A stretch of 32,000 bases of DNA. It comes from Staphylothermus hellenicus DSM 12710 (lineage in GTDB: Archaea > Thermoproteota > Thermoprotei_A > Sulfolobales > Desulfurococcaceae). Under the pieces are notes generated by a model. It was given only the letters and a program-made list of their open reading frames with translations. It was not told the origin of the DNA and did not search any database. The translations under genes and the position numbers were made by a program. The stretch covers positions 480,001-512,000 of the forward strand of contig NC_014205.1 in the NCBI RefSeq assembly GCF_000092465.1, written 5' to 3'. Of this stretch, positions 7,286-28,212 are shown piece after piece (position 1 is the first letter of the stretch; every line of letters begins with the position of its first letter).

Positions 7286-7578
7286 CCTCCAATTCTTTCT
7301 ATATTGCTACTCAGAATTTACGAGGATTATTAGCAACGGTTTTATTCCCCCTTTCAATTCTTTCTAAGTTGTTACGAGATCAGACTATGAAATATTTTCT
7401 AGACCCAAGCGATTAGCCTTTCAATTCTTTCTACGTTGTTACATGACTAAGGCAGTTAATCTATTAGCAAACACAACAGTATTCCCCTTTCAATTCTTTC
7501 TGTGTTGTTACTTAACAACGGAGTAGTTCATATAGTGTTTAGCTTAAAGGTGGCTTTCAATTCTTTCTGTGTTGTTAC
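7286..7578 (-). CRISPR. orphan mini CRISPR array, 5 repeats / 4 spacers, transcribed on the minus strand
   Basis: The 25-nt repeat is CTTTCAATTCTTTCTGTGTTGTTAC. Copies at 7554..7578 and 7487..7511 are identical. Copies at 7418..7442 (CTACG variant) and 7351..7375 (CTAAG variant) each carry 2 mismatches. The copy at 7286..7310 is degenerate with 5 mismatches. Spacers are 42, 44, 42 and 40 nt and are unrelated to each other. The reverse complement, GTAACAACACAGAAAGAATTGAAAG, ends in ATTGAAAG, the canonical 8-nt crRNA 5' handle. That sets the orientation and places the leader at the high-coordinate end, where the repeats are intact. Confidence 0.85.
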
Positions 7579-7880
7579 TTCAGTTCGAATACGTTGCTAC
7601 ATTTATAGTTTTTATTCGAACCAGATATATATGCTTTTCCATACTTGATCCCTTGGTTGATCCTGTTCGAACAGCTCACTATAGGCTTAATAGTATCTCT
7701 AACCCCTTGATGGGTTTGTATAATGTAAAATATTCGACTAGTTTCTATTGAGGTTTTGTGTTGTTTTTGTGTTTATATTATTTATAATTATTTGTATATT
7801 GTTATAGTAGATATATTGAGTATTTTGTCTGATAATTTGTATAATATTGTTTGGCTTGGTGGGTAAGAAGGAATAATGTT
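7579..7880 (-). promoter_or_regulatory. putative CRISPR leader
   Basis: About 300 nt of AT-rich non-coding sequence lies between the wtpC stop and the best-conserved repeat. It contains near-repeats TTTGTATATTGTT (7791..7803) and TTTGTATAATATTGTT (7836..7851). The 7569..7751 + ORF here starts inside a repeat and is judged spurious. Confidence 0.45.
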
Positions 7881-8600
7881 TTAATATAAATGATTTATTA
7901 TTGGTTTTATTTCTTCGATGTATGGTTTTGCGTATTCTGTGTTTAGGAATTCTTTTATGGTATATTTTCCGATGAGTTTGCCTTTGTTTATATATGCTAT
8001 GTGGTCTCCTAGATCTATTGCTTCGATAATGTCGTGTGTTACGTGTATTGCTGTGAATTTTATTTTCTTTCTTAGTTCTTTGATGAAAGATCTTATTTTA
8101 ACCTTGTTTTCTGGATCAATGTTTGCAAGTGGTTCGTCTAGGAGAATTATTTTGGGTTCAACTATGAGGGCTCTTGCTAGTGCGACTCTTTGTTTTTCTC
8201 CGCCGCTGAGTGTGTCTGGTTTTCTCTCGAGTAAATGCTGGATGCCTAGAATCTTGCTGATCTCATAGATTCTTTTCTCGATAACATCCTTGTCGATACC
8301 TCTGATCATGAGTCCGAAGCCTATGTTTTCCTTAACAGTCATGTGTGGGAATAGGCCGTAGTCTTGAGGTATTAATACGAATCCTCTCTTCTCGGGTGGT
8401 AGCTCGGCTATGTTTTTATTATTTACAAGTATTTCTCCATGGAGGGGTTTATGGAATCCTGCGAGTGTGTGGAGAAATACTGTTTTTCCTACACCGCTTG
8501 GACCCATAACTATTAAGTATTCGTTATCGTTTATGCTGAGATATGGTATGCTTAGTTTAAAACTGCCTATTTCAACGTATAGGTCACGTATCTCTATCAT
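7881..8600 (-). CDS. wtpC: tungstate/molybdate ABC transporter, ATP-binding protein
   Basis: 239 aa with Walker A GPSGVGKT, signature LSGGEKQRVALARAL, Walker B ILLDEP and H-loop VTHD. Its ATG overlaps the upstream stop (ATGA at 8597..8600). Confidence 0.85.
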   Translation of the reverse strand: MIEIRDLYVEIGSFKLSIPYLSINDNEYLIVMGPSGVGKTVFLHTLAGFHKPLHGEILVNNKNIAELPPEKRGFVLIPQDYGLFPHMTVKENIGFGLMIRGIDKDVIEKRIYEISKILGIQHLLERKPDTLSGGEKQRVALARALIVEPKIILLDEPLANIDPENKVKIRSFIKELRKKIKFTAIHVTHDIIEAIDLGDHIAYINKGKLIGKYTIKEFLNTEYAKPYIEEIKPIINHLY

Positions 8601-9397
8601 TTCCTAAACAGCACCCTTATACCTATGAATGCTAGAAGCGATAATAATACGACTATTGATGATAATGCTGTTGTATATTTTAATCCATAAGTATTAAACC
8701 ATTCATAGATCAATACATTTATTGTTTTCGGATAATATGCTACAATAAGTATAGAGCCAACCTCGCTCAACGCCCGGGCCCATGAAAGCAGGAACCCAAC
8801 AATTATATTAGGTAGTAATAGAGGCAGGGTTATCTTTGCAAAAGTTACCCATCTATTTGCACCCAAACTTCTAGCAACAAGCTCTAAAGAAACACTGATC
8901 TTTTCATAACCAAGCTTTAAAGTATCAATCATTATTGGGAAAGAAACAAACAGCATAGCCGCGACAATTCCCCAGAAGCTATTCTCTACAGAAAACCCTA
9001 AAACACGGGGTAGATCATCAAATAATCCATTATGTCCATAAGCTAGTAGAATCATTATTCCAACAATCGTGTGTGGAATCATTAATGGAACATCTATAAG
9101 CCCCTCAACTAATTGTTTCCCCCTAAAACTATAGCGAGCCAATAAATAACCCGTAGGAATACCTATGACTAAAAGTATTAGTGTAGAAGTTATCGATGCT
9201 TGAATAGTCAATAACAATGCTGGATATGCTTGGCGAGAAAACACATTATCTTGTAGCCATACCTGGGAAAATGTTTCTGGATCAACACTTATGAATAAAG
9301 CAATTATTGGTGATAAAATAAGTAAAATACCTAAAGAAGACACAGCTATAAAGACTAATAAAAAACCCTCAATTCTCCTAAGACCCTGAACCAACAA
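8597..9397 (-). CDS. wtpB: tungstate/molybdate ABC transporter, permease
   Basis: 266 aa, a multi-helix BPD-type permease. It contains an EAA-like loop region (ELVARSLGANRWVTFAKITLPLL). It overlaps wtpA by 20 nt and wtpC by 4 nt. Confidence 0.8.
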   Translation of the reverse strand: MLVQGLRRIEGFLLVFIAVSSLGILLILSPIIALFISVDPETFSQVWLQDNVFSRQAYPALLLTIQASITSTLILLVIGIPTGYLLARYSFRGKQLVEGLIDVPLMIPHTIVGIMILLAYGHNGLFDDLPRVLGFSVENSFWGIVAAMLFVSFPIMIDTLKLGYEKISVSLELVARSLGANRWVTFAKITLPLLLPNIIVGFLLSWARALSEVGSILIVAYYPKTINVLIYEWFNTYGLKYTTALSSIVVLLSLLAFIGIRVLFRK

Positions 9398-14721: not shown

Positions 14722-15609
14722 TTAGCGGTAATTGTGAAAATATGCAACATAGTATTCTTTAATGCCGCCAATAGTTTTAGCGACTGGTTCACATTTAGGA
14801 ATAAGTAGGTGAGCTATTGGTTTTTCTAATTCTATACCGCTTATGTATTCATAGTGAGCCATGCCCTTAGCTATTATTAGATCGGCTTCTTTAAGGTATT
14901 TTTTGAATTGTTCTGATACTTTATTTAGATGTATGCTTGAACCATTATAGCCTGTTGAAATTATTTCATCGAATACTTTATCTAGTCCAGCATAATATGC
15001 ATCGCTCATTGTTAAATCGTTTTGGAAACCAGGATCTTCCTTTGCAACACCTATTACTTTGTTTCCATAGTTCTGCAGTATTTCCACAAGCAATGTATCT
15101 AGAACTGATTCACCCGCATTATCAAATAACCACAGGATCTTCTTTCCTCCTGCCCGTATATAATCATATATTTCACGAGTATGATCTATTATTAATGGTG
15201 TAGAAAGTATTCGATCAACCGAGATCTTATCCGGCGGCTCATATCCTGCTACTCCAGTATCTAATGCATTACCCGCTATGGAGATCTTTGTTGCAAACCT
15301 GAATTTCTCGTATCCCTCGAGTTTTTCGAGGAAAGACTTATACTCTCCAATGTTCTCCCATGCCCTACTTATTGCTTTCTTTTTTAAATCCTTATAATAA
15401 TCTACTATCTCTGGTGCAAGACTTATTAGTTTATTAAATATGTTTGTAGCTATAATGGTTAATTCATTATTTCTAGTAAACTCCTCATATGCCACTTTTA
15501 ATAGTTGTATTTGCAGCTTAATTGTTCTTTCATGATCTCTTATGCTATTCATTATTTCACGTAATCTAACAGATACTATGCATTGAACACATGGGGCATG
15601 TGGCTTCAT
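14722..15609 (-). CDS. DUF89 family protein (ARMT1-like damage-control phosphatase fold)
   Basis: 295 aa. It has N-terminal CVQCI, a central AGNALD, the metal-site block LWLFDNAGESVLD, and AKGMAHYEY plus KCEPVAK near the C-terminus. This is the characteristic motif order of archaeal DUF89 proteins. Confidence 0.75.
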   Translation of the reverse strand: MKPHAPCVQCIVSVRLREIMNSIRDHERTIKLQIQLLKVAYEEFTRNNELTIIATNIFNKLISLAPEIVDYYKDLKKKAISRAWENIGEYKSFLEKLEGYEKFRFATKISIAGNALDTGVAGYEPPDKISVDRILSTPLIIDHTREIYDYIRAGGKKILWLFDNAGESVLDTLLVEILQNYGNKVIGVAKEDPGFQNDLTMSDAYYAGLDKVFDEIISTGYNGSSIHLNKVSEQFKKYLKEADLIIAKGMAHYEYISGIELEKPIAHLLIPKCEPVAKTIGGIKEYYVAYFHNYR

Positions 15610-15772
15610 AGATAAGCACCTGCTTAGTTTTTAATTTTAATTATTCGATAAAATTTTATAGACACTGTACCATATTATGATACAATATATTTAAATTATC
15701 ACCAAGCCCCCATTAAATAGGGGGTGTATGTTTTATGAATAGAAAAGGAAAACCCGTGCAGAAGCTTTAGTT

Positions 15773-15970
15773 ATGCCTGGAATAGTTTATGAGCCCACTC
15801 TACTATGATCCCGGGAAAACGAGTTTACAGCCGCACTTACTAAGTCTTAGGAGGCAAAATAAGAGCCATACTGTTTGGGTTTTTCACTTGAGAAGAGATG
15901 CTAAGTTTCATGATGGAACACATGTTACTGCTAAGCTATAAAATTCGGTTTCCTGCGGAAAAAGCAATAA
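15773..15970 (+). pseudogene. short frameshifted remnant of a family-5 (oligopeptide/dipeptide) ABC solute-binding protein
   Basis: Three pieces lie in three frames. MPGIVYEPTLL* is at 15773..15808. YDPGKTSLQPHLLKSLRRQNKSHTVWVFHLRRDAKFHDGTHVTAKL* is at 15804..15941. AIKFGFLRKKQ* is at 15935..15970. Joined, they reproduce the conserved N-terminal signature of SBP_bac_5 proteins (..YEpLv.YD.....l.P.LAesW......t..F.LR.gvKFHDGtp.TAeDVkFsfer). Only about 70 of an expected several hundred residues survive. Confidence 0.55.
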
Positions 15971-16127
15971 TACTGTATAGAGGAGAAAGAGTTGAGAAAT
16001 CATCAATGTAGTGGAAGTATTTTTCTCTAATTAGATATCATTATTGAGCTGAACCGTGTTTTCTATAATATTTTCGGTTATGTCTCTTGGTTTTATATTG
16101 TTTTATCTATTCTTTGGGTGAAGGTTT

Positions 16128-16799
16128 ATGGTTAAAATCACTGGTTTCTGGTTTATTGATAGGTTTTTTGATGGGATTCCATGGAATAGTGTTTACGAGT
16201 TTTATAGTAGTGATAATAGGTTGTTAGAGCTTTTATTTCATTATGTTATAAGTATTTCTAGTGTTTATGGGAGAGTCTATGTTGTTCTAGTACGTGAATT
16301 CGGTGGTTTAGACCCATATTTTCTTCTCAGACTTACCCGTATGCATAGGGGTGATCCTGATAATGTTTTTGTTTCTCGTTGTTTCCGCGTAGGAGATGTT
16401 GAAACTGTTCTTGAGGATCTTTTAGAGAATAATTTCTCGAAGAAATCATCTGTTCTAATCTATACTCCCTACTCCTTTGTTAGGAACGGTTTAGCGGGTT
16501 ATCACGATATGGGCAGGATTACTGGTTTAATTCATAGGTTGAAGAATCTTGGTTATCGTATTATATTGTTTAATGAGGTTAGTAGGGATGGTTATTATAG
16601 ACCTATGGGTGGTTCTTTTCATCATCATACAGCAGACATTATTCTCCGATTAGATGTTAAGGATGGGAAATGGGGTTATCTCATTGTTGTTAAGCATCCT
16701 CGTTTATCGGAGGGGCTGCGTATAAGTATTCCAATCAATAAGATCAGGGGTGGGAATATATGGGTAGAACAACGATCTCTTATAGAATGGCTCTCCTAA
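16128..16799 (+). CDS. RecA/RadB-like fold protein lacking Walker A and Walker B (predicted inactive ATPase)
   Basis: 223 aa. It is collinear by eye with RadB/KaiC-type RecA-fold proteins. DRFFDGIPWNSVYEFYSSDNRLLELLFHYV corresponds to LDELLGGGI..G.ITEIYGPPGSGKTQLALQL. SSVLIYTPYSFV corresponds to the hhhhDS Walker B strand. RITGLIHRLKNLGYRIILFNEVS and ADIILRLDV...VVKHPRLSEG match the later strands. The GxxxxGKT/S motif and the Walker B Asp are both replaced. Confidence 0.6.
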   Translation: MVKITGFWFIDRFFDGIPWNSVYEFYSSDNRLLELLFHYVISISSVYGRVYVVLVREFGGLDPYFLLRLTRMHRGDPDNVFVSRCFRVGDVETVLEDLLENNFSKKSSVLIYTPYSFVRNGLAGYHDMGRITGLIHRLKNLGYRIILFNEVSRDGYYRPMGGSFHHHTADIILRLDVKDGKWGYLIVVKHPRLSEGLRISIPINKIRGGNIWVEQRSLIEWLS

Positions 16800-16984
16800 G
16801 GGAGCTGGAAAGATTCCGTAGAATAATAGCTAGGCTTCCAAGAGATGAGAAAGCTAGGTGGGAAGAAATACTTGAGGGTATTGAGGATACTATGAGTATC
16901 TACAGCGATGTCCCAATAACTGATCCATTGGAGATCATATATTTCCATATACTACGTAGGCTTTTAAGAGATGATGTTTCTTGA
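16760..16984 (+). CDS. small alpha-helical protein (unknown), translationally coupled between the RecA-like and PolB genes
   Basis: 74 aa in the track. An ATG at 16787 (MALLRELERFRRIIARLPRDEKARWEEILEG...) gives 65 aa and a 13-nt overlap with the upstream stop. Its TGA stop overlaps the TTG start of the polymerase gene (16981..16984). Confidence 0.5.
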   Translation: MGRTTISYRMALLRELERFRRIIARLPRDEKARWEEILEGIEDTMSIYSDVPITDPLEIIYFHILRRLLRDDVS

Positions 16985-18927
16985 ACAATAATATTCTATA
17001 TCTTTTCGACGCCGTCCCCTCCGGTAAGTATACCTTGTTTAAACTATTGGACCGGGATGGAAGAGTATATGTAGTTCCTATAAGTCTTCTATATCGTGGA
17101 TACCTTATGCCACGTATTGATCCAGATGTTTTATTGGAGAATGTTGAGTTAATAAATGGTGTTGAAAAAGTATGGGTTGAGAACTGGTATAAACCACCAT
17201 ACTTTTCTTCTGAGACAGAAGTAGTTGTTTATGAAACACGTGATCCCCGCATAATAAGTACTGTGAATAATTGGGCTATACGTAAAGCTATCGGTGTTCC
17301 AGTTAATACTTTTCCTGAACCATTAATTGAAGCTTTATGGAGAAACAAGATCCCTGTACTAACCCCTTTGAAGAAATATGGGGATAGAATTGTTGCTTTG
17401 GAGAATCCTTTTGATCCAGAATATTCTGAGCCTCCGATCAAGTATTTAATACTACGCTTATTTAGAGGTGGGTATAGATTATATTCTGAAGCAATAGATC
17501 CGGAGAAAGTTGTTGTAGAGGATAATGAGGGCATAGTTTATGAGGGTGGCTTGGATGGAGCTGTTGAAACTATTCGTGAACATAAACCATTAATACTCTA
17601 TACCAGTATTGTAGAGAAAATATATGTTGAGCAAAGATATTCTTGGATTAAGAAATACTATGATGTATGGATAGATGATGCTGAAACACTTGTTGATCAT
17701 ACAGGTATAGTGTATTGGAGCAGGCTATCATATACTCCTCCTAGAATGCTTAACTATGCAACCATAGGCAGAATACTAACTACTATAGAAGCATTAGAAG
17801 CTAGGAAACATAAATACCTAATAATAAATGGTTTTGGACGCAGAGAGTCTTGGAGAAGTCTTCGAAGCCTATTAGAAACTGATCGTGGAGGACTAGTTTA
17901 CTCGCCTAAACCCGGCCTGTACTGGGATATTTGCCAAATAGACTATAACAGTCTTTATCCAAGCATCATTGCTAAATACAATATTAGTGGTGAAACAATT
18001 GATAATCCATATTGTAGGAACAAATATGTAGTGAAGAATTCACCGCATATAATATGCATGGATCGCAGAGGACTTGTATCAATTGTTCTAGATAAACTAG
18101 TAAGGCTACGTGAGAAAACAAAAATGCTTAGGGCACAAACAAATAATGAAGTATATAGTCTTAGAAGCAAAGCTCTTAAATGGATGCTTGTCTCAGGCTT
18201 TGGCTATCTAGGATTCAAGAATAGTTTATTCGGCTCAATAATGGCTCATGAAACAGTTACATGGTATGCTCGCAGAATATTGAGAGAAGCACAATGGTTG
18301 CTGGAGAAGAGAGGCTATAAAGTAGTACATGTAATAATAGATAGCTTATTTGTTCAAGGAGGAGATTGTGAGAAAGCATTGAGAATAGTTGAAGAAACAG
18401 GTATGCCTGCAAAAATAGAAGCTGAATATACATGGCTATATATTCCGGAAACAAAGAATACAGGGCTTGGAGCAGCTAATAAATACTATGGGAGACTAGC
18501 TAGTGGAGAAATGAAGATTAAGGGAGTAATGTGTGTTAGGAAAAACACTCCAATATTCATTAGAGAAACACAGTTAGAAGCAATAAATAAGCTTGGAGAA
18601 GCCGGAAAACCAGAAGAGCTCAAGGAGAAATTAAGAGAAGCACATACAGTTTTCCAATTAGCCGAACAAAAACTTATCAATAGAGAAGTAGAGTCTTGGA
18701 AGCTAGGCATAATAGTTAATGCTAGGAAAAAACCCAAACATAAAACACCATGGTTAAAAGCATCATCAATGATCAGAAAATATACTGGACCCATAGTCTA
18801 CATAATATCCCCTAGCGGAGAACCCGAACCCCTTATAGATACTGACCAAAAATACAGTGCAGAATACTATGTAAAACTACTACATAGCGCATGGGAAGAA
18901 ATACCAAGCATAGATATAATTCAATAA
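16981..18927 (+). CDS. family-B DNA polymerase, PolB2/Dpo2-like: exonuclease motifs absent, motif C altered
   Basis: 648 aa. Motif A is intact: GGLVYSPKPGLYWDICQIDYNSLYPSII (D321..S328, nt 17941..17964). Motif B is divergent: KWMLVSGFGYLG versus KxxxNSxYG. Motif C reads VVHVIIDSLFV where YGDTDS is expected, so only one Asp is left. The KKRY-like NKYYG and the thumb block IKGVMCVRKNTP are present. No DxE or NxxxFD exonuclease motifs occur in the N-terminal 300 aa. Confidence 0.8.
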   Translation: MNNNILYLFDAVPSGKYTLFKLLDRDGRVYVVPISLLYRGYLMPRIDPDVLLENVELINGVEKVWVENWYKPPYFSSETEVVVYETRDPRIISTVNNWAIRKAIGVPVNTFPEPLIEALWRNKIPVLTPLKKYGDRIVALENPFDPEYSEPPIKYLILRLFRGGYRLYSEAIDPEKVVVEDNEGIVYEGGLDGAVETIREHKPLILYTSIVEKIYVEQRYSWIKKYYDVWIDDAETLVDHTGIVYWSRLSYTPPRMLNYATIGRILTTIEALEARKHKYLIINGFGRRESWRSLRSLLETDRGGLVYSPKPGLYWDICQIDYNSLYPSIIAKYNISGETIDNPYCRNKYVVKNSPHIICMDRRGLVSIVLDKLVRLREKTKMLRAQTNNEVYSLRSKALKWMLVSGFGYLGFKNSLFGSIMAHETVTWYARRILREAQWLLEKRGYKVVHVIIDSLFVQGGDCEKALRIVEETGMPAKIEAEYTWLYIPETKNTGLGAANKYYGRLASGEMKIKGVMCVRKNTPIFIRETQLEAINKLGEAGKPEELKEKLREAHTVFQLAEQKLINREVESWKLGIIVNARKKPKHKTPWLKASSMIRKYTGPIVYIISPSGEPEPLIDTDQKYSAEYYVKLLHSAWEEIPSIDIIQ

Positions 18928-27819: not shown

Positions 27820-28212
27820 TCATATTTTTCTACAAGGCCTAGTAGCTACTATGTCTACGTTTAATCCGAGAACATTTCTCACTATAATATCTCCTATTTC
27901 GACAGGTGCGTCGACAACTATGTTTGCTAAGTACTTTGAAACTTCTAATAGTTTATTTTTCGGAATAGGCTTTGATGTTTTAACAGATACTACCGGTAGA
28001 TCTCCTCCCCTACATTTTACAATAGTCATTAAGGTTCTCATAGGCGTTTTCACTTCTTTAACGGCATATTCTTTGCCTCTAGGACATCCGTAGTCTTCGA
28101 CACGTGTTATTTTACCATCTACACTATAGACTTTGATCCGGCATCCTCTAGGACATATAGTACATATAATCTCATCTATTCTAGTATTGCCCATATGGTT
28201 TCGCCTCAACAA
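27820..28212 (-). CDS. DUF1667 domain protein, small subunit associated with archaeal GlpA-type dehydrogenase operons
   Basis: 130 aa. CTICPRGCRIKV...GCPRGKEY is the characteristic Cys pattern of DUF1667. It overlaps the upstream oxidoreductase gene by 32 nt. Confidence 0.75.
   Translation of the reverse strand: MLRRNHMGNTRIDEIICTICPRGCRIKVYSVDGKITRVEDYGCPRGKEYAVKEVKTPMRTLMTIVKCRGGDLPVVSVKTSKPIPKNKLLEVSKYLANIVVDAPVEIGDIIVRNVLGLNVDIVATRPCRKI

Follow-up and report, generated by a model that had tools for sequence, protein, structure and literature searches.

A probable PolB2 mutasome operon in Staphylothermus hellenicus and a conserved candidate damage-response element upstream of it

Introduction

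We analysed a 32,000-nucleotide stretch of the chromosome of Staphylothermus hellenicus DSM 12710 (NC_014205.1, positions 480,001 to 512,000; hereafter the window, numbered from its first letter). Three overlapping open reading frames (ORFs) on its forward strand very probably constitute a chromosomal iRadA-PPB2-PolB2 operon belonging to the "PolB2 mutasome" family described earlier, which is predicted to form an error-prone DNA polymerase complex inducible by damage. The first gene encodes iRadA, an inactivated RadA/Rad51-core protein (ORF1, 16128-16799, +, 223 aa, ATG start), the second encodes the small protein PPB2 (arCOG07300; ORF2, 16760-16984, +, 74 aa, ATG start) and the third encodes PolB2, a family-B polymerase of the Dpo2 type (ORF3, 16981-18927, +, 648 aa, TTG start). 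The system is already known and this very locus has already been catalogued. The additions made here are modest: a corrected start for PPB2, an overlap in which two conserved motifs are encoded by the same DNA, and a conserved upstream sequence resembling the Sulfolobus damage-response element (DDRE).

An operon of PolB2, arCOG07300 and an inactivated RadA-family protein was reported in archaea and bacteria, and a complex acting in the damage response was proposed (Makarova et al. 2014, PMC4104785); the operon linkage was also reported by Makarova & Koonin 2013. Supplementary Fig. S1 of the 2014 paper includes the S. hellenicus PPB2 (Staphylothermus_hellenicus_DSM_12710, gi 297526548) with a truncated start, and the S. 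marinus protein with the sequence MGRT (PMC4104785). The names iRadA and PPB2 come from Timinskas et al. 2025, whose structural models for 40 species show a PolB2:iRadA:PPB2(3) heteropentamer (PMC11791011). There, an element of PolB2 that imitates the Rad51 oligomerisation motif makes the contact with iRadA, and the arm of PPB2 is inserted close to the DNA. Clamp-binding motifs were found mostly on iRadA, and the complex was called a mutasome and likened to Pol V and Pol zeta (PMC11791011). The supplement of that study assigns Staphylothermus sp. to operon type '1a (iRadA-PPB2-PolB2)'. An earlier note on this DNA, written from the sequence alone, held that such a cassette had not been characterised; it had in fact been described in 2013-2014 and modelled in 2025.

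Functional information comes from Sulfolobales. Co-induction of all three genes there is reported in PMC11791011. S. islandicus Dpo2 has established roles in tolerating damage, in induced mutagenesis and in the extension of mismatches (PMC7390963 and PMC8764526, as summarised in PMC11791011 and PMC13324097), and the link between Dpo2 and damage-induced mutagenesis that the earlier note gave was correct. Polymerase activity, activity as an extender in translesion synthesis and a requirement for induced mutagenesis are known only for the S. islandicus and S. solfataricus Dpo2 proteins (PMC11791011, PMC13324097).

Results

Three overlapping genes linked across archaea and bacteria

ORF1 and ORF2 overlap by 40 nt and ORF2 and ORF3 by 4 nt (TTGA), and a Shine-Dalgarno (SD)-like sequence precedes each of the first two starts. 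The cassette lies behind a 518-nt intergenic region and is followed by approximately 700 nt without a convincing gene. One promoter would transcribe iRadA, PPB2 and PolB2, and their translation would be coupled through the two overlaps; the features that speak for a single transcript and for translational coupling are directly visible in the DNA.

A PolB2 scan of one genome per species gave 566 confirmed relatives, from which the best 80 loci, covering many archaeal and bacterial phyla, were kept (individual loci are cited by L numbers). Linkage was counted from our own ORF calls and iterated hidden Markov models (HMMs), with partners within 1.5 kb. Among the 54 PolB2 loci flanked on each side by 1.2 kb or more, 38 had both partners and 46 had at least one, in archaea as well as in bacteria. 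The order iRadA-PPB2-PolB2 was dominant (46/80 loci). Relatives found with the iRadA-family HMM adjoined PolB2 in 51/80 loci, and a Walker A motif occurred in only one of these 51 proteins. The arrangement goes far beyond what chance would give: most of the PolB2 loci examined show these three families linked.

Cassette gene lengths and overlaps were the same in S. marinus and in two metagenomic relatives (L083 and L084), whereas the immediate flanking genes differed. The cassette therefore behaves as a unit. Other arrangements were also found: in Thermosphaera and Ignisphaera, iRadA is divergent from PPB2-PolB2 (L088 2920-3582 and L089 2930-3607, both on the - strand), and L015 has the order PPB2-PolB2-iRadA.

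The earlier note had described three overlapping ORFs encoding a RecA-like protein without Walker A and Walker B Asp, a small helical partner and an exonuclease-dead polymerase of the PolB2/Dpo2 type. It had reasoned that the products form a complex, and had proposed to look for the same linkage in other genomes and for a RecA fold by profile and structure. This outline was confirmed by the analyses reported here: the linkage is not confined to one genome, the RecA fold was found by both routes, and the inferred complex agrees with the published heteropentamer models (PMC11791011). One detail was amended, since the 13-nt alternative that the note gave for the first overlap corresponds to a wrong start.

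iRadA is a RadA-core protein without an ATPase site

A database homologue search matched the ORF1 product at 100% identity to a Staphylothermus hellenicus protein annotated as hypothetical. A Pfam search of this product gave no match, and an NCBIfam search matched RadB only, below threshold (E 0.022). A word-indexed homologue search returned only four relatives, so the iRadA family appears to evolve fast. A profile of these four relatives was searched exhaustively against 1.84 billion representatives and recovered 44 proteins, from which a 37-sequence alignment (A4) was built and used for both profile comparison and AlphaFold2 (AF2) modelling. Against solved structures, the 37-sequence profile matched Pyrococcus furiosus RadA (E=1.3e-15, profile positions 5-202), and it also matched Rad51, DMC1, RAD51D and RadB. 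The AF2 model built with this alignment had a pLDDT of 90.7 and a pTM of 0.87; it replaced a run with the 4-sequence alignment, which was unusable (pLDDT 48). Foldseek comparison of the model with the PDB gave RAD51, DMC1 and RadA as top matches (E 2e-12, TMq ~0.75). The relationship of ORF1 to RadA became significant only because the exhaustive profile search had added relatives.

The position of Walker A in iRadA reads EFYSSDNRLLELL, with no GxxxxGK[ST]; in place of GxxxxGKT, the residues SSDNRLLE are aligned to the RecA P-loop. At the Walker B position, which reads LIYTPYS, the Asp is replaced by Thr113. The wider iRadA family usually retains DPY at Walker B, and in this respect the Staphylothermus clade departs from the family consensus, the Walker B Asp having been lost too. 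Core RadA elements are retained, including NEV, PMGG and HHH. Profile position 5 of iRadA aligned to residue 113 of the 349-aa chain 1pzn; iRadA starts where the RadA core starts, and the N-terminal helical domain of RadA (HhH; oligomerisation/DNA-binding) is therefore missing.

At its C-terminus, iRadA carries a motif resembling a PCNA-interacting peptide (PIP) box, QRSLIEWL (Q215-L222, codons 16770-16793, +), which lies within the overlap with PPB2. This motif and the S that ends the protein are invariant among the four closest iRadA homologues. A PIP-like C-terminus was found in 23/37 iRadA family members versus 0/23 PolB2 proteins, which partly supports the assignment of the putative clamp motif to iRadA rather than to PolB2 in the Staphylothermus clade. 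With its core fold, the loss of the ATPase site, the absence of the N-terminal domain and the adjacency to PolB2 and PPB2, the ORF1 product shows four traits of iRadA (inactivated RadA; arCOG07763/04294/08101).

PPB2 starts upstream of its annotated start and shares DNA with iRadA

ORF2 matches Shell_0543 of strain DSM 12710, which is annotated at 65 aa and overlaps ORF1 by 13 nt. The annotated start (16787) is 27 nt too late, and the correct start is the ATG at 16760, giving 74 aa. The 74-aa protein begins MGRTTISYR, and MGRT is the conserved N-terminal arm motif of PPB2 (PMC11791011). The longer form is preferred because it includes the MGRT arm (codons 16760-16771), because its ATG is preceded at 6 nt by the SD-like sequence GGGGTGGG (16747-16754, +), and because the 74-aa form has the same architecture in three relatives (S. 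marinus, L083 and L084). The 65-aa start was rejected, as it omits the arm.

A Pfam search of the 74-aa protein gave no match, to the Y-family polymerases or otherwise. Comparison of PPB2 from the window with S. islandicus PPB2 using hhalign, in which the S. islandicus sequence was taken from machine-read text of the 2014 supplement, gave 92% probability, an E of 5e-7 and 59% identity over the first 29 residues. An HMM of PPB2 iterated over the ORFs of the 80 PolB2 loci grew from 5 to 63 small ORFs. Most of these begin MGR[TS], and nearly all adjoin PolB2 (62 loci). The ORF2 product combines two hallmarks of the family: it is a small protein encoded in a PolB2 operon, and it carries the MGRT arm. 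The comparison, together with the entry in the 2014 alignment, identified the small helical partner as PPB2, for which published models predict a three-helix fold that forms a homotrimer (PMC11791011).

With the corrected start, the 40-nt overlap (16760-16799) is read in two frames, one encoding the PIP-like box of iRadA and the other the MGRT arm of PPB2. An overlap of 37-40 nt spanning the PIP-like box was found only in the Staphylothermus clade (the window, L081, L083 and L084), which in this differs from the known operon. At this junction the genes of most other archaeal loci abut or share about 1 nt, and longer overlaps were called at a few archaeal and many bacterial loci.

PolB2 keeps polymerase motifs without an exonuclease domain

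PolB2 was matched by the family-B polymerase model PF00136 (E 1.8e-22), and it aligns to Pfu Pol and other archaeal PolBs from residue ~294. The best NCBIfam model was NF004416 (2.4e-75), under the model cutoff. The exonuclease domain PF03104 had no match in PolB2 from the window or in 22 relatives (0/23). In the 23-sequence alignment, no invariant Asp or other acidic residue was found in residues 1-290, and the N-terminal region is ~90 residues shorter than that of Pfu Pol.

Motif A is kept (DYNSLYPS; D321 at 17941-17943, +). Motif B reads KWMLVSGFG, with N changed to V and Y to F relative to Pfu Pol, and motif C (residues 452-454, 18334-18342, +) reads IID instead of DTD. Motif C in the relatives follows the pattern I/L/V-I/V/T-D; the replacement of the first Asp is typical of the PolB2 group, not universal, and motif C of S. 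islandicus Dpo2 is 401-IID-403 (PMC11791011). Motif A, the second Asp of motif C and the Lys of motif B were invariant in the 23 homologues. In the loop before motif A lies the D(K/R) motif, D301-R302 (17881-17886, +), within a DRGG that was invariant in 23/23 sequences. The corresponding motif of S. islandicus PolB2 is 253-DK-254 (PMC11791011), and the spacing from D(K/R) to motif C is 151 residues here versus 148 in S. islandicus. The ORF3 product therefore shows the family-B domain, the decayed exonuclease, the replaced first Asp of motif C and the D(K/R) motif that mark the PolB2 group. Polymerase activity of the Staphylothermus protein is suggested by analogy with S. islandicus Dpo2.

All close homologues of PolB2 are 630-660-aa proteins of Thermoprotei, and the homologues (n=23) are conserved from about residue 5. 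This supports the TTG start (648 aa) over the 606-aa call P0008. The 42 residues gained with the TTG start are conserved in homologues, and the 4-nt overlap is therefore real.

A conserved DDRE-like element precedes the cassette

In an alignment of the promoters of the window, S. marinus, L083 and L084, which belong to PolB2 proteins down to 54% identical, the only conserved blocks were a 20-mer, a TATA-like box and an SD-like sequence. The 20-mer, AATATTTTCGGTTATGTCTC (16067-16086, +), is a candidate counterpart of the Sulfolobus damage-response element, the site of Orc1-2, and contains the ANTTTC core as ATTTTC (16070-16075, +), 58 nt upstream of the iRadA ATG. It is followed by the TATA-box-like sequence TTTTATATT (16091-16099, +; ~29-37 nt upstream of the iRadA ATG), which is conserved in the four promoters and is a putative promoter element, and by the SD-like sequence GGGTGAAGG (16116-16124, +), whose GGTGA is invariant in alignment A5.

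The 20-mer agrees at 16/20 positions with the S. islandicus consensus AATAGTTTCRGWDTACTCWS, a consensus of Sulfolobales and not of the host. A score of 16/20 was reached in only 3/426 150-nt windows of the 32-kb sequence, and the single exact match to AATANTTTCGG in the window is the upstream element itself. A second 16/20 match (27927-27946, -) lies within an ORF and was dismissed as chance.

Similar sites were found at other loci. The pattern A.TTTC[AG]G....[CG]TC had 15 matches in the 939 kb of all loci, compared with a mean of ~6 overall in shuffled sequence. Ten of the 15 sites are correctly oriented and precede the first cassette gene by 50-136 nt; they come from Staphylothermus, Thermogladius, Thermosphaera, a Crenarchaeota metagenome-assembled genome, Methanomassiliicoccales, Hadarchaeota and Heimdallarchaeota. 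DDRE-like sites of this form (ANTTTC(R)G-N4-STC) lie at L001 5032, L015 5155, L088 ~3623 (-), L005 471, L007 4064 and L043 1548. In the intergenic region shared by the divergent genes of Thermosphaera and Ignisphaera, the DDRE-like site points towards iRadA.

An unbiased k-mer scan of 37 non-redundant archaeal cassette promoters returned ACTTTC as the top 6-mer (15/37 promoters versus 212/5372 background windows, p 6e-12). The degenerate ANTTTC occurred in 26/39 promoters versus 18% of background windows. Variants of ACTTTC were enriched 5' of PolB2 cassettes in Methanomicrobia, Bathyarchaeia, Methanomassiliicoccales, Hadarchaeota and a Heimdallarchaeote. Bacterial PolB2 cassette promoters (among L006-L080) had no enrichment of ANTTTC, and TCTTGAC and ACATTT were enriched instead.

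In Sulfolobales, Orc1-2 binds ANTTTC, the element is required for induction by NQO, and the induction of dpo2 is Orc1-2-dependent (Sun et al. 2018, PMC6061795). The same study explicitly left open if Orc1-2 proteins outside Sulfolobales regulate the damage response. In the searchable literature, we found ANTTTC discussed only for Sulfolobales. Genes of the orc1/cdc6 family are enriched beside polB2 in archaea (PMC4104785, PMC11791011), and a putative Orc1-2-type operator upstream of the cassette would fit this enrichment.

Genomic surroundings of the cassette

The neighbours of the cassette are ordinary metabolic and transport genes, among them an aminotransferase, an ARMT1-like phosphatase, ABC transporters and an FGGY kinase. 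Genes for SRAP and DUF72 proteins, enriched near polB2 elsewhere, were absent from the window. An Opp-type ABC operon precedes the cassette in intact form in S. marinus and L083 but has been lost in S. hellenicus. A 50-aa ORF at 15789-15941 (VWVFHLRRDAKFHDGTHVTA) is a candidate remnant of it: it looks like part of an SBP_bac_5 oligopeptide-binding protein, resembling the 'LRkgvkFhDG' region.

The gene for the ARMT1-like 'damage-control phosphatase' lies divergently upstream of the cassette (14722-15609, -), and L084 has one at 7785-8666. Damage control is taken here to mean metabolite damage, not DNA damage. The position of this gene near the cassette probably reflects residual synteny, not a functional link. 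A G/C-clamped hairpin, cccccattaaataggggg (15700-15735), is found in the long intergenic region downstream of the start of this divergent gene. Four CRISPR repeats (Rfam RF01339, CRISPR-DR27) form a small array at 7351-7578, ~9 kb upstream of the cassette. A PADLOC 'HEase' match to PolB2 covered residues 275-383 only; we read it as polymerase sequence inside a long model, not as a nuclease.

Discussion

The cassette in the window has much in common with the published PolB2 mutasome: gene order of type '1a', the MGRT arm, the D(K/R) and IID motifs, a Walker-less iRadA without N-terminal domain, and a clamp motif on iRadA. The type example, the S. islandicus operon (Dpo2 F0NED6, PPB2 F0NED5, iRadA F0NED7), encodes the same three families, but the order in Sulfolobales differs from that in the window, the consecutive accessions F0NED5-F0NED7 suggesting PPB2-PolB2-iRadA, as in L015.

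By comparison with the published system, PolB2 would be the catalytic subunit and would bind one iRadA through a loop just upstream of D301-R302 that mimics the RadA/Rad51 oligomerisation motif. A PPB2 trimer would dock asymmetrically, with one MGRT arm inserted in the cleft between PolB2 and iRadA near the DNA. We take these subunit contacts from the literature, where homologues and not the sequences in the window were modelled with AlphaFold. The QRSLIEWL motif of iRadA would tether the complex to PCNA. Without proofreading, the enzyme would carry out translesion synthesis, mainly by extending primer ends that are mismatched or lie opposite a lesion, and by analogy with the genetics and biochemistry of S. 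islandicus Dpo2 this extension would give rise to damage-induced mutations. Expression would be induced by damage through an Orc1-2-type regulator bound to the ANTTTC element at 16067-16086, just upstream of the TATA box.

Several observations weigh against this interpretation. The subunit contacts rest on models of homologues, and a 2026 review regards the complex as a prediction still awaiting verification (PMC13324097); our literature search found no biochemical test of the PolB2-iRadA-PPB2 complex. S. islandicus PolB2 is active alone in vitro. PolB2 itself has an altered motif B and a motif C without its first Asp. One close PolB2 (L085, 5001-6833, 45% identical, 610 aa) has no iRadA or PPB2 within 5 kb; upstream of it only a PIN fragment was found, and its partners may be elsewhere or the locus may be decaying. 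With regard to regulation, no orc1/cdc6 gene was found within the window, to which the search was confined. The DDRE was defined in Sulfolobales, and Staphylothermus belongs to Desulfurococcales. ANTTTC is also short and AT-rich, which makes single sites weak evidence; the case for the element is built on its position, the extended match and the enrichment across lineages.

One comparator used in the literature is E. coli Pol V (UmuD'2C-RecA-ATP). Like the PolB2 complex, Pol V is damage-inducible and error-prone, contains one RecA-superfamily subunit bound through an oligomerisation-motif mimic, and has a small oligomeric subunit that puts an N-terminal arm near the active site. It differs in having a Y-family polymerase, a RecA that is the active housekeeping enzyme and no dedicated dead paralogue, a UmuD' dimer with another fold, and a clamp motif located on UmuC. 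Eukaryotic Pol zeta (Rev3-Rev7(2)-Pol31-Pol32), the other comparator, is likewise a family-B enzyme of several subunits; its exonuclease is inactive and it carries synthesis past lesions by extension, but its accessory subunits are unrelated (HORMA and B-subunit proteins) and include no recombinase homologue.

The earlier note had favoured a different parallel, a convergent counterpart of the bacterial ImuA-ImuB-DnaE2 (ImuABC) mutasome in which the small protein is an adaptor bridging an inactive RecA-like protein to the polymerase. Both systems do pair an error-prone polymerase with a RecA-superfamily protein and with a small or accessory subunit; in ImuABC the RecA-like subunit is dedicated, often Walker-less (ImuA1 and ImuA2 also lack Walker motifs), encoded with the polymerase and damage-inducible (PMC12926913), and gene order and coupling in the window suggest a complex. 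The parallel is nevertheless loose. DnaE2 is a C-family polymerase whereas PolB2 is of family B. ImuB, an inactive Y-family polymerase bridging ImuA and DnaE2, has a RecA-NT motif, a beta-barrel C-domain and a clamp motif (PMC12926913); PPB2 is 74 aa, helical and without a Pfam match, it is unlike ImuB and has no counterpart in ImuABC, and the clamp motif here is on iRadA. In the published models PolB2 binds iRadA directly through its own recombinase-binding motif, and PPB2, as an arm-inserting trimer, is closer to UmuD' in Pol V. Mycobacterial ImuA has moreover been reported as an active ATP-dependent helicase-nuclease (2026 preprint), so ImuA may be enzymatically active and the premise of an inactive RecA-like subunit is weakened. 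The idea of a mutasome survived, and an adaptor system of the ImuABC kind appears very improbable.

The substituted residues of PolB2 bear on a further possibility, namely a complex without catalytic activity that serves in structure or regulation, for instance where forks stall or replication is initiated. Functions of this kind were suggested by Makarova et al. 2014, who viewed PolB2 as an inactivated polymerase and noted linkage to arORC2 (PMC4104785), and IID for DTD, the altered motif B and the decayed exonuclease domain would all agree with it. Yet S. islandicus Dpo2 has the same IID and is active and required for induced mutagenesis (PMC11791011, PMC13324097), and a dead site would not be expected to keep motif A, the Lys of motif B and the second Asp of motif C invariant in 23 homologues; we regard an inactive complex as distinctly improbable. 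Hardly more probable is a recombination module in which iRadA, as a Rad51 paralogue, caps or docks RadA filaments and PolB2 is delivered to D-loops or RadA-coated gaps instead of to PCNA. RAD51 filaments and capping complexes of RAD51 paralogues are among the best structural matches of iRadA, which keeps much of the RadA core, and Pol V requires RecA from a filament end (PMC11791011). On the other hand, iRadA lacks the N-terminal domain and an oligomerisation motif of its own, its acceptor groove is filled by PolB2 in the published models, models of PolB2 with RadA are poor (0.28; PMC11791011), and the conserved C-terminal PIP-like motif points to PCNA. Finally, family-B polymerases occur in casposons, archaeal viruses and plasmids (PMC4104785), the genes immediately beside the cassette differ between S. 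hellenicus and S. marinus, and a CRISPR array lies 9 kb away, all of which could suggest that the cassette belongs to the replication machinery of an integrated virus or mobile element, or serves in defence, and is not a cellular repair operon. This is the least probable of the alternatives, and extremely so: no integrase, terminal repeats, tRNA or Cas1 were found nearby (no search was aimed at cas genes), the accessory proteins had no PHROG or PADLOC match, G+C content is unremarkable, the upstream difference is a deletion of the Opp operon with a remnant, and wider synteny is kept, with FGGY, MFS, S15 and GDPD genes downstream in both Staphylothermus species.

Returning to the PolB2 mutasome, its upstream element resembles the Sulfolobales Orc1-2/DDRE regulon (PMC6061795) in having ANTTTC just upstream of the promoter of the dpo2 operon. 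It differs in that the regulon was defined and tested only in Sulfolobales, whereas the window element lies in Desulfurococcales, and related ACTTTC forms occur in other archaeal phyla. ANTTTC(R)G may be a damage-response operator, in which case Orc1-2 and the DDRE would form an SOS-like regulon spanning the archaea, and the PolB2 mutasome would be its conserved core member. We put this forward tentatively, as a serious possibility and not as an expectation.

No new category of system emerges from the locus, but as a clean and compact example from a hyperthermophile it could suit biochemistry because of its tight translational coupling, the PIP-like motif on iRadA and the MGRT arm that is intact after the start correction. 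The PolB2 holoenzyme has never been reconstituted. Among candidates for the principal polymerase of damage-induced mutagenesis in archaea, the complex, which has also been transferred to many bacteria, stands first. A DDRE-like element outside Sulfolobales is the one lead that goes beyond the searchable literature, and it makes the question raised by Sun et al. 2018 directly testable. If true, the element would extend the archaeal damage regulon, which has so far been shown only in Sulfolobales.

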